Assembly: GCA_963555825.3 (NCBI GenBank)
Contig: CAUVXB020000002.1
Coordinates: 704,001 to 768,000 of the forward strand
Reading direction: 5' to 3'
Length of the DNA: 64,000 nt
Source: Alphaproteobacteria bacterium
GTDB lineage: Bacteria > Pseudomonadota > Alphaproteobacteria > JAAXGF01
In this document: positions 44,707 to 46,533 of the stretch, in pieces
Numbering within the stretch: the first letter of the stretch is position 1
How the letters are laid out: each line of letters opens with the position of its first letter
Made by a program: the position numbers and the translations under genes
Notes under the pieces: generated by a model
Databases searched by the model: none
What the model saw: only the letters and a program-made list of their open reading frames with translations
What the model was told of the DNA's origin: nothing

Positions 44707-44924
44707 GCGAGCCTCCCTAAAAGGCGTGACCTGACGGAGCCAAGACATACTAATGAAATAAATGCAGCAATCGAAGCAAATGTCAATGGGGTGGCATTGA
44801 CACCTGGGCCGGGGCGTCGCCTGAATTCATTCGGAAGGCGAGACCCTGTCAGTTTCTTAGTCCCCCAACAGATTCCCACCAATGCTTTCAGTGATCCGTG
44901 CGGCCGCTGACGCTCTCATGTTTG

Positions 44925-45980
44925 TCAAGCACTCGATGGGGCGGTGAGTACGCGGTAGATCTCGCGGGCCACGTAACGCTTCAGGCAGCGCATGATCTCG
45001 CGTTTGGACAGCCCCTCCAGGGTCCTGCGAGCGACATAGGCTCGGGTCCGCTCGTCGGTTCGCATTCGGCACACGACGACCATGTGCAGGGCGGAGTTGG
45101 CTTGGCGGTTGCCTCCGCGGTTGAGACGGTGGCGTTGCGTCTTCCCACTCGATGCGGGGATCGGGCAGACGCCGCACATCATGGCGAAGCTCGCCTCGGA
45201 GCGGAGCCGATCCGGGTTATCCCCAACGGCGACCATTACTGCGCCTGCGTTCTCGGTGCCCACGCCTTCGAGCTCAAGCAGACTGGGGGCGAGCTCCTCG
45301 ACCAAGGGGACGATGAACCGGTCGAGTTCAGCGATCTCGTCGTTGATGTCGAGGATTCTGCGGGCGAGGGACTTCAGGGAGAGCTTGGTCGCGACCACCG
45401 GGTCTCGATAGCCGACCGTGTCCGGCCTCCAGGCCGCACAGGTACGCAGGCGCTGCATGCGGGTGAGGTTGCGGACCTGGTCACGCACTTCCTCCGGTGC
45501 GGCAACGATGGTGTTGTGGAGTTGCTGCAGGGCCGCGCGGCGGCACTTGATTGCCGTCTTTCGCGTTGTTCGCAGCACCCGCAGGGCTTCCACGGTGCCG
45601 GAACGGTCTTTGGCCACCTGGACCCGGCGTCTTGTGCGCGCCGCCTCGGCCGCGGAGATCGCATCCAGGGCGTCGTCCTTGCCCTTGGCTCTTCGGCTGG
45701 CTGGGTCCGGCCCGGTCACCTCGAGCACGGGGATACCCGAGAGTGCCAGGTGCCGGGTGATGCCGGCTCCGTAGGTACCGGTGGATTCCACTCCTACACG
45801 AAGCAGCTCGCCATGAGAGCGGAACCAGCGAAGCATCGCCCGGTAGCCGGCTCGGGTGGTGGAGAACGATTCGGTACCAAGCACCGTTCCGTCGTGGCTC
45901 ACGACGGCGGCGGTGTGCAGGTCCTGGTGGGTGTCGACGCCACCGATGATCTGGATGTTGTCGGCTGTTGTAGTCGCCAT
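44925..45980 (-). CDS. IS110-family recombinase
   Basis: DEDD-type motifs GGVDTH, VESTG and KDDALDA; catalytic PASSG; GGNRQAN. Confidence 0.95.
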   Translation of the reverse strand: MATTTADNIQIIGGVDTHQDLHTAAVVSHDGTVLGTESFSTTRAGYRAMLRWFRSHGELLRVGVESTGTYGAGITRHLALSGIPVLEVTGPDPASRRAKGKDDALDAISAAEAARTRRRVQVAKDRSGTVEALRVLRTTRKTAIKCRRAALQQLHNTIVAAPEEVRDQVRNLTRMQRLRTCAAWRPDTVGYRDPVVATKLSLKSLARRILDINDEIAELDRFIVPLVEELAPSLLELEGVGTENAGAVMVAVGDNPDRLRSEASFAMMCGVCPIPASSGKTQRHRLNRGGNRQANSALHMVVVCRMRTDERTRAYVARRTLEGLSKREIMRCLKRYVAREIYRVLTAPSSA

Positions 45981-46215
45981 GTCCGCCCCCTGGTCTATGA
46001 TGGGTGGAGGGGTTGGCTCCGAACTCAGCCGATGTCGGACACGACAGTGACGGGGCGCCCAAGGCCGGGCTCTCATCAGGTCACGATGTCGGTCGAGGTC
46101 GGAACCTCAACCGGTTGCCCCCGGGTGGCCGACATGTCCGGGGAATGACATCTCGGTCGATCTGAGTGTGGGTCAAGCCACCCAAGGGCGGCCGGCCCTA
46201 TCAGTCTAGATGCGT
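45981..46215 (-). ncRNA. Candidate IS110 bridge RNA
   Basis: Non-coding leader with two TGACC-NN-(7 nt ending AG)-spacer modules; the second carries ATGAGAGC, matching the element's right end. Confidence 0.6.
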
Positions 46216-46267
46216 CTATCGCTGTGCGGGTCAGGTCACTCCGAGGGAACCGGCCCGCAGATACTCA

Positions 46268-46533
46268 CTATCGCTATGGTGGATCACACCGGCGCCAGGT
46301 TGGCGCAGCCCGATAGCACGGTTAAGCGCCCTGAGCGGCAGGTCGCTGGTCATGCGAGCGCCCACGGCCCAGCCGATGACGCGCCGGGAGTAGAGGTCGA
46401 GCATGACGGCCAGGTACCGCCAGCCCTGTGCCGTCCAGATATAGCTGATGTCGGCAGCCCATTTCTCGTTGGGTGCCTCGGCGGAGAAGTTCTGGTCGAG
46501 AAGGTTCGATGCGACGGCCTTGTTGGTCGACAC
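46268..46533 (-). pseudogene. IS3 orfB internal remnant ending at HHSD
   Basis: NLLDQNF..WAADISYIWT..DLYSRRVIGW..VIHHSD. Confidence 0.85.

Follow-up and report, generated by a model that had tools for sequence, protein, structure and literature searches.

The question raised by this locus, on the minus strand of a 64,000-nt stretch of contig CAUVXB020000002.1 (the window, throughout this text), is whether an IS110-family insertion sequence (IS) carries in its non-coding leader an RNA that chooses the insertion site, and where exactly such an element begins and ends. An earlier note, made from the letters of the window, had described here an intact RNA-guided recombinase with two parallel modules in its leader and a promoter created by circularization, and had given its ends in two versions. 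From a comparison of the copies of the element, of an empty target site and of a series of relatives we arrive at the reading that the locus is an ISEc21-type insertion sequence of the IS110 group, intact and recently active, with a leader that encodes a bridge/seek RNA; to this reading as a whole we assign a probability of about 0.8.

The recombinase open reading frame (ORF; 351 amino acids (aa), minus strand, 45980-44925) contains the domain pair of the IS110 family in a Pfam search, namely an N-terminal DEDD RuvC-like domain (PF01548, DEDD_Tnp_IS110, E = 2.6e-25, residues 14-158) and a C-terminal Tnp domain (PF02371, Transposase_20, E = 3e-17, residues 234-316). The stretch PASSGKT, aligned to PVSSGKT in the ISEc21 transposase, presumably contains the catalytic serine. 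The host genome (2 contigs, 6.04 Mb) holds 6 full copies and 3 fragments of the element, mutually 100% identical, and with both domains present in the ORF the element is indeed intact, as the earlier note had it. In all 7 left junctions of this genome identity ends upstream of the AG at 46269-46268, and in all 7 right junctions it ends after the C at 44909; the span common to all copies runs from AGTGAGTATCTG... (AG 46269-46268) to ...CATGAGAGCGTC (C 44909), and the same ends were found at related loci. Because the junctions line up in this way and public contigs contain an empty site, in which the left flank (position 46270) is joined directly to CGGGGAAGCCAG... / CGGGGAAGCCAGTACTGC... (contigs from 3 RNA-library runs and 1 DNA run), the element is defined as window 46269 to 44909, minus strand, 1361 bp, without duplication of the target. 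It has a leader of 289 nt before the ATG, 16 nt after the stop codon, and no long terminal inverted repeats. The true target, as read from the empty-site contigs, is ...AGCGAT|CGGGGAAGCC: the insertion lies between GAT and CGG and separates Asp from Arg-Gly in the HSD|RGSQY motif encoded by an IS3-type rve transposase gene. An empty copy of this target IS3 was not found in the element's own genome. The alternative end of the earlier note (AG at 46269-46268 and 44908-44907) is therefore the correct one; the target derived from it, AGCGAT-AG-CGGCCG, is not, because it was deduced from the right flank of the window copy, which is rearranged.

The flanks of the other copies clarify this point. Six of the 7 left flanks in the genome belong to the same IS3-type rve gene and end in ...CAC CAT AGC GAT (HHSD, Pfam rve), and the remaining one is a different site, ...CAT TCA GAT. 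All 6 left halves of the target IS3 type in this genome are occupied (C1:231496, C2:116408, C2:2269339, C2:3420084, C2:750270, C2:3381252), with at least 4 of them at distinct loci and each of these with a full left part of about 930 nt; the IS110 element therefore behaves as a parasite that disables another transposon. Right flanks start with CG in 4 of the 7 copies and with AG in 3, including the one in the window, and 2 of the 4 CG-led flanks continue the IS3 gene (CGG GGA AGC CAG TAC = RGSQY). In the window copy both element ends are intact, and the right flank has been replaced through a later, secondary joint to a site that begins with AG. The simplest reading of this flank would be a deletion that runs from the right end to such an AG-led pseudo-site; recombination between two copies would also explain it. 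One of its frames, beginning RPHGSL..., presumably resembles the C-terminal part of rve transposases.

Relatives were collected as 68 loci in species-representative genomes that carry the labels of several phyla, and as 79 metagenome loci retrieved with an 18-letter pattern from loop 2 of the leader; a protein search returned at least 8000 candidates, the best 120 of which have 76-100% identity, and five further genomes searched contributed only one or two new junctions. Among relatives down to approximately 77% protein identity the right-end motif CTTGACAAACATGAGAGCGTC is nearly unchanged, and related loci open on the left with AG-TGAGTAT or something very close to it. In most of these loci the flank on the left is CAY-NNN-GAY (His-Ser/Thr-Asp) or AAY-ACN-GAY; the one on the right is (C/A)(G/A)N-GGN-...CAG-TAY. 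Flanks of the form HHSD|RGSQY in rve genes are those of the ISEc21-type subgroup.

The leader was studied in an alignment of 41 of 60 distinct leaders, to which all the pairing statistics below refer; the other 19 were near-duplicates, as judged by eye, or incomplete (L011, L021, L024, L025, L033, L043, L048, L056, L110, L116, L119, L123, L127, L129, L133, L140, L143, L156, L161). RNAalifold recovers 40 pairs, 20 of them with compensatory changes. In a hand-built structure of 51 pairs 94.9% of the cells are paired, as compared with 91.7% in shuffled alignments, and both sides have changed in 22 pairs, as compared with 10.1 ± 1.9 after shuffling, a number that 0 of 500 shuffles reach; when partners are slid by 1-3 columns, only 29-50% of the cells remain paired. 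Both sides have changed in 11 of the 15 pairs of helix 4, the outer stem of the target-binding loop, and in 1 pair of helix 2, the stem of the 5' domain, which is paired in 94.5% of the cells; some relatives have large insertions in this domain. The two modules singled out in the earlier note, TGACC-CA-CACTCAG...CCCCGG-ACATGTCG (approximately 46175-46130) and TGACC-TG-ATGAGAG...CCCCGTC-ACTGTCG (approximately 46083-46040, both on the minus strand), are present as quoted, and they correspond to a target-binding and a donor-binding loop whose stems and guides covary across the aligned relatives.

In the target loop, 46189-46177 and 46174-46172 pair with 46133-46117 to form the outer stem, which encloses the left target guide CACTCAGAT followed by CG (46168-46158), an inner stem GAC/GTC, the right target guide TTCCCCG (46145-46139) and a handshake-like GAC (46138-46136). 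The left target guide follows the left flank across insertion events, and the right one is the reverse complement of CGGGGAA, the right arm of the empty site. The donor loop consists of CGTGAC (46085-46080), the left donor guide ATGAGAGC (46076-46069), an inner stem (46070-46067 with 46060-46057), the right donor guide TCACT (46050-46046) and a handshake-like GTC (46045-46043). The left donor guide is identical to positions -11 to -4 of the right end, so that the match of 46076-46069 to 44919-44912 pointed out in the earlier note is confirmed; it undergoes three concordant changes with the right end, and in ISEc21 and L066 both of them read AGAAGGGC. The right donor guide is the reverse complement of the left-end AGTGA, and the helix that the two would form (helix 1) has UA in 39, GC in 1 and no pair in 1 of the leaders at columns 3/289, and GC in 38 and AU in 3 at columns 4/288, for a total of 4 compensated changes and 1 broken. 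The covariation of loops with ends and targets among homologues that the earlier note had proposed as a check is thus found.

The triplets that follow the two 3' guides switch in a similar way. The GAC after the right target guide is complementary to the last three bases of the donor, GTC, and it is replaced by GAT in L071, L177 and L066, whose right ends finish in ATC; the GTC after the right donor guide is complementary to GAC or GAT of the target, and it becomes GTA in L071 and L173, whose targets end in TAT or TAC. Since such switches are the behaviour of handshake guides, the grammar of the leader is IS621-like. At the level of DNA and covariation, then, the leader encodes target-binding and donor-binding loops whose strands match target and donor. 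A search of Rfam (E up to 10) gave no match in the leader, and two chance-level matches (E = 1.2 and 4.9) both fell outside it.

According to the mechanism that we propose, the leader of about 290 nt would yield a bridge/seek RNA in which loop 1 (46189-46117) reads the target, with a 5' strand in the sense of the His-Ser-Asp codons and the next two bases, and a 3' strand that is the reverse complement of the Arg/Gln-Gly codons that come next. Loop 2 (46085-46040) would recognize the ends of the element itself once they are joined, through ATGAGAGC on the right and AGTGA on the left. Integration by the recombinase would then take place directly after the Asp codon in IS3-type rve genes, without duplication, while the three bases after each 3' guide would pair, in handshake-like fashion, with the last three bases of the partner DNA before the crossover. 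By extension from ISEc21 and IS621, the element would be excised as a circle, and the joint ...GAGAGCGTC|AGTGAGTAT would build the promoter TTGACA-N17-GAGTAT.

The junctions can also be read for the register of the crossover. In IS621 the top strand is reported to be cut 3' of a CT core at positions 8-9 (PMC11208158). When the present junctions are placed in that register, positions 8-9 are A(T/C) in the targets and TC in the donor. No shared core dinucleotide can be recognized: before the crossover AT or AC of the target stands against TC of the donor, and after it the donor AG stands against CG, CA, AA or AG of the target. The AG core of the earlier note has to be given up on these grounds, as AG represents the first two bases of the left end, positions 10-11 in the right arm of the donor only, and the empty site has CG. 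On the left, AG follows the GAY of the target in 64 of 65 unique junctions (AG was not required in the search); in the sole exception TG replaces AG before TGAGTAT, with the flank CATCACTCGGAC. On the right, GTC is followed by the target's own bases, with CG, CA, AA or AG retained, in all loci except L021. The left junction thus carries target positions 8-9 and the donor AG, and the right junction the donor TC and the bases of the target. These near-uniform junctions fit a transfer of mainly the top strand, followed by replication, since a two-strand exchange with a 2-nt stagger should give mixed positions 8-9; a blunt two-strand exchange, which is compatible with the same near-uniform outcome, would fit as well. 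For the ISEc21-type family the top-strand model is inferred from the sequence of the junctions. Top-strand transfer followed by replication has been reported in two preprints (Sun 2025; Xie 2026). Each natural insertion reports which strand was inherited, given that the bases of donor and target beside the crossover are not the same, and natural junctions therefore offer a census-style test of the disputed single-strand versus double-strand model. In L021 (= L091) the right end finishes in GAC, which is how its own target, CAT AGC GAC, ends; an occasional inheritance of the two bases before the crossover from the other strand would give this result.

Some flanks depart from the target motif. 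Eight AG(T/C)-led right flanks across the family do not continue the target gene, and 7 of the 8 begin with AGT, like the donor AGTGA. In L024 and L025 (near position 1700) and L104 (near position 600) the left flank resembles the right end of the element and not the His-Ser-Asp codons: it is TTCATGAGAGCGAAT, an IS3 orfA/B segment, in the first two and ...GGGCGTC in the third. These three left flanks look like the outcome of donor-arm (half-match) recognition, and together with the AG-led right flanks they resemble, in natural insertions, the donor half-site recombination described for IS621 (Xie 2026 preprint). A reading of L024 and L025 as tandem right-end/left-end joints was considered and rejected, as the IS3 orfA/B segment is merely similar to the right end. 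In L041 the right end is followed by AGT and GGGATCGCAGTAC, where the close relative L022 has CA and GGGCTCGCAGTAC; here the target gene continues, with AGT in place of CA and one base longer.

How firmly is the whole reading held? With the true ends joined on paper, TTGACA (44928-44923) is followed after 17 nt by GAGTAT (46266-46261). Several observations weigh against it. GAGTAT, replaced by GAGAAT or AAGAAT in relatives, agrees with TATAAT at only 3 of 6 positions; a search of the integrated copy detected no sigma-70-like site on the strand of the element; no circle joint was present in the contigs of 4 of 24 public runs, although contigs lose rare forms and absence is not implied; and RNA-library contigs cover 45374-46269, that is, part of the gene and the leader, without proving transcription or showing the ends of an RNA. 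An RNA 5' end at 46239-46245, where contigs stop in three runs, was considered and rejected, since breaks in the assembly graph are indicated by a variant at 46246 and by 60-nt contigs that overlap. On the side of the target, agreement of the right guide with the flank is modest: guide and flank share the first two bases in 26 of the 43 events that look intact (CG-CG 15, CA-CA 10, AA-AA 1), and the overall number of matches, 188 of 301, is not significant by permutation (p = 0.058). It could be argued that the leader, whose RNA is a predicted one, is a mere 5' untranslated region (UTR) or promoter region and that the protein chooses the site. We consider this very unlikely in view of the covariation of guides with flanks and of guides with ends, and of the experimental proof reported for the homologue ISEc21 (PMC11187229). 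Refuted by the junctions and the empty site is the model preferred in the earlier note, in which the element would end at the AGs 46217-46216 and 44914-44913, with a joint ATGAG-AG-ACG and a promoter TTGACA-N17-TAGACT. The arithmetic of that joint is right, and the adjacent AGCGATAG does resemble a target-element joint. Yet both AGs lie inside the sequence common to all copies, which stay identical beyond them for 51 nt to the left and for 4 nt to the right, and for this reason junction and promoter fall with them; in addition, the empty site is known, TAGACT belongs to a variable, unconserved hairpin, and the homologous ends of ISEc21 align with 46269 and 44909. Of the two target halves that were said to recur in the leader, AGCGATAG (46223-46216) is real and conserved in the family, as part of a module that we call M0, while CGGCCG (46194-46188) is the 3' strand of a stem, with no demonstrable link to a target.

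M0 calls for a separate evaluation. It lies upstream of the target loop, reads CTGACCC-G-CACAGCGAT-AG and parallels the TTGACCC-A-CACTCAGAT-CG of that loop; its TGAC context is at least 90% conserved in the leader alignment, and between lineages its 9-mer differs in the manner of a series of codons (for example CACAGCGAT, AACACTGAT, CATAGAGAC, with TACACCTAT in a retargeted lineage). The canonical guide of the window element spells the TCA-serine version of the motif, and M0 the AGC-serine version. Accordingly spelled sites are found in the same genome: the window left flank CATAGCGAT matches M0 at 8/9 positions and the canonical guide at 5/9, and the other site, CATTCAGAT, matches M0 at 5/9 and the canonical guide at 8/9. 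We slightly favour the view that M0 (46234-46216) would act as a second left-target guide. Also possible, at odds clearly short of even, is that it is no more than a paralogous relic or belongs to the architecture of the 5' domain, with insertions at AGY-serine or Asn-Thr-Asp sites arising from mismatch tolerance or from half-match recognition of the right arm only. To compare the two, 55 distinct events (combinations of M0 9-mer, canonical 9-mer and 9-nt left flank) were derived from 161 pattern hits, leaving out rows with no recognizable left end, with a flank <12 nt, with no M0 or canonical guide called, or with an N in the flank (one case), and also L024 and L025 with their donor-like flank; the label of L179 was set by hand. 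The entropy per position of M0 was set aside as circular, since the M0s in it had been chosen for their codon-like spelling. Of the two 9-mers, the canonical one matches better in 38 events and M0 in 17, with 0 ties; in 13 of the 55, M0 matches at 7 or more positions and the canonical guide at fewer than 7 (p = 0.002, M0 permuted among 29 element types). When G-T and U-G wobble is allowed, the better of the two guides matches at 8/9 or more in 45 of the 55 events. The canonical guide reaches 7 or fewer in 24 events, and in 14 of these M0 reaches 8/9 or more (p = 0.00015, permutation among 29 element types), a result that a relic would not be expected to give. Nor would a relic be expected to keep, in divergent lineages, both a codon-like spelling and the TGACYC-N context of the canonical guide, or to change together with it, as both modules do in the lineage retargeted to TAY-NNN-TAY (L173 and L177, and L071 after a 3-nt shift made by eye). 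Sites poorly matched by the canonical guide amount to 17 of 41 in elements with a codon-like M0 and only 3 of 20 in those without (Fisher p = 0.046, 61 events); the direction disfavours a relic, and the contrast is weak. Other facts agree better with the relic: M0 lacks a 3' guide to go with it and is followed only by a variable hairpin; it is degenerate or absent in several lineages, amounting to about a third of the element types; the events share ancestry and are not phylogenetically independent; ISEc21 is reported to work with an RNA of 58-74 nt, and to transpose with the 58-nt form, without any M0 (PMC11187229); and half-site recombination is reported for IS621 (Xie 2026 preprint).

Two ways of completing M0 were rejected. 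The pyrimidine-rich loop at 46249-46243 does not serve as its right guide, as the register misfits CGGGGAA and the loop resembles a small hairpin; and a fold that pairs the 5' strand of M0 with the 3' strand of the target loop, although compatible with the sequences inspected by eye, is indistinguishable from paralogy. If M0 is a guide, sites that spell the motif with AGY-serine (or as Asn-Thr-Asp) would also become open to one and the same element. We give even odds to the combined proposition that the bridge RNA of this clade has two alternative left-target guides for (near-)synonymous codon versions, His-Ser(AGY)-Asp or Asn-Thr-Asp in M0 and His-Ser(TCN)-Asp in the canonical guide, which would widen its IS3 host range, and that the junctions record essentially top-strand-only transfer. 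No description of a second left-target guide or of two target-binding loops was found in the literature searched. A functional M0 would represent a natural multiplexed or degenerate-target design for bridge recombinases, and would illustrate how synonymous codons can be dealt with by an RNA guide whose target encodes a protein. The features discussed are collected in Table 1.

Table 1. Coordinates in the window of the element, of the parts of its leader and of its flanks, with the evidence for each.
Feature	Positions	Strand	Evidence
Whole IS110-family element, AGTGAGTAT... to ...CATGAGAGCGTC	44909-46269	minus	7 left and 7 right junctions, empty site, related loci
Left-end start (right donor arm), AGTGAGTAT	46261-46269	minus	AGTGA complementary to right donor guide; covariation with 46050-46046
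Putative -10 of junction promoter, GAGTAT	46261-46266	minus	part of left-end start
5' domain: stem GCCG 46254-46251 / CGGC 46194-46191; small pyrimidine-rich hairpin, M0, variable hairpin including TAGACT	46191-46254	minus	helix 2
Module M0, CTGACCC-G-CACAGCGAT-AG; 9-mer 46226-46218	46216-46234	minus	context, conservation, family statistics
Target-binding loop (module 1 of the earlier note)	46117-46189	minus	helix 4; guide-flank tracking
Linker hairpin CGGT / TGAGGT-TCCG-ACCTCG / ACCG, between the two loops	46090-46113	minus	helix 7, both sides changed in 5/7 pairs
Donor-binding loop (module 2 of the earlier note), closing strand to 46040	46040-46085	minus	helices 1, 8-10; guide-end agreement
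Recombinase gene, 351 aa; stop TGA inside TTGACA	44925-45980	minus	Pfam; 56% identity to ISEc21; weak IS621/ISCro4 chain matches
Right end: TTGACA 44928-44923 (putative -35), ATGAGAGC 44919-44912, last three bases GTC 44911-44909	44909-44928	minus	junctions, relatives
Left flank: 246-nt remnant of IS3-type rve transposase gene, ending ...HHSD (CAC CAT AGC GAT)	46270-46515	minus	Pfam rve; length common to other copies; empty-site contigs
Right flank: AG, then genome-unique sequence, not the rest of the IS3 gene	44790-44908	minus	flank comparison; one frame RPHGSL...

The element lies in a patch of the window that is rich in insertion sequences. Just past its right flank, two adjoining ORFs on the minus strand (43676-44748), with HTH_17 (168 aa) and PIN_3 (189 aa) domains and a 4-nt overlap, look like an antitoxin-toxin pair. 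An IS4/5-type transposase gene (DUF4096 and DDE_Tnp_1) is located at 42698-43519 on the plus strand, and an rve-type transposase gene (HTH_21, rve, rve_2/3), whose DDE motif ...MDHGSQY is unoccupied, at 47273-48178 on the plus strand.

With regard to distribution, 200 nt of the leader were absent from all 40 of the 40 relatives of the host genome that were searched, and the element is therefore patchy. Public runs that contain it include sponge metagenomes. Among loci L010-L077, protein identity is 96-100% in assemblies labelled Alphaproteobacteria and 77-89% in assemblies labelled Gammaproteobacteria, Gemmatimonadota, Actinomycetota and others. This distribution would fit horizontal spread within a shared habitat.

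These results can be compared with what is known of characterized IS110 systems. The closest characterized relative is ISEc21, with 56% protein identity (186/335) in its annotated copy (locus L182), which is reported to target exactly these codons by means of an RNA that comes from the non-coding stretch ahead of its gene (Siddiquee et al. 2024, PMC11187229). Full copies of ISEc21 are present in 475 E. coli genomes. The two elements share the upstream non-coding region and the layout of the loops, in which ISEc21 has its own guides (left CACAGCGAT and CG, right TGCCCTG, donor AGAAGGGC and GTTACT). They also share a -35 at the same distance from the right end, the ISEc21 joint giving TTGACT-N17-AATAAT, and a promoter at that joint is reported (PMC11187229). 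They differ in that the first 100 nt or so of ISEc21 are AT-rich and contain no M0 led by CTGACCC, and in that the type of the window element is hosted by uncultured bacteria of several phyla. ISEc21 does contain, at L182 540-552 (approximately left-end positions 31-39), a string CACTCTGTT-TG that loosely resembles a TCN-serine version of its guide CACAGCGAT, outside a TGACYC context; it may be a vestigial M0 or a chance likeness.

The chains of IS621 and ISCro4, the bridge recombinases with solved structures, are only remote protein matches (E about 1e-9; 7e-10 for IS621). As described for IS621 (PMC11208160, PMC11208158), the element has a DEDD and Tnp recombinase, a predicted RNA at the left end with the target loop before the donor loop, guides that follow the top strand in the 5' strands of the loops and are its reverse complement in the 3' strands, and handshake guides; the promoter that IS621 is reported to rebuild at its circle joint (same sources) would have its counterpart in the one proposed here. 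The contention of the earlier note that the loop grammar is unlike that of IS621 is for the most part not borne out, as guide senses and covarying triplets are those of IS621. It does hold for a left donor guide that ends 3 nt before the crossover, for positions 8-9, which are CT in both donor and target of IS621 and A(T/C) in the target and TC in the donor here, and for the extra M0; the handshake-like element here is 3 nt long, and Rfam has no match.

With the single-strand and half-match models put forward for CazIS110-1 and IS621 (Sun 2025 and Xie 2026 preprints), the present junctions share the appearance of a mainly top-strand copying in, and with the half-match model of Xie 2026 the donor-arm-like flanks, LD-like in L024, L025 and L104, and the AG(T)-led right flanks; the difference is that here the strands are deduced from sequence only. 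Since bridge-RNA targeting of IS3 transposase genes by an IS110 element was already known from ISEc21, the element of the window is an ordinary new member of a known, experimentally characterized kind, and what goes beyond this is the conserved extra guide-like module that tracks its insertion sites, together with the difference between donor and target beside the crossover.

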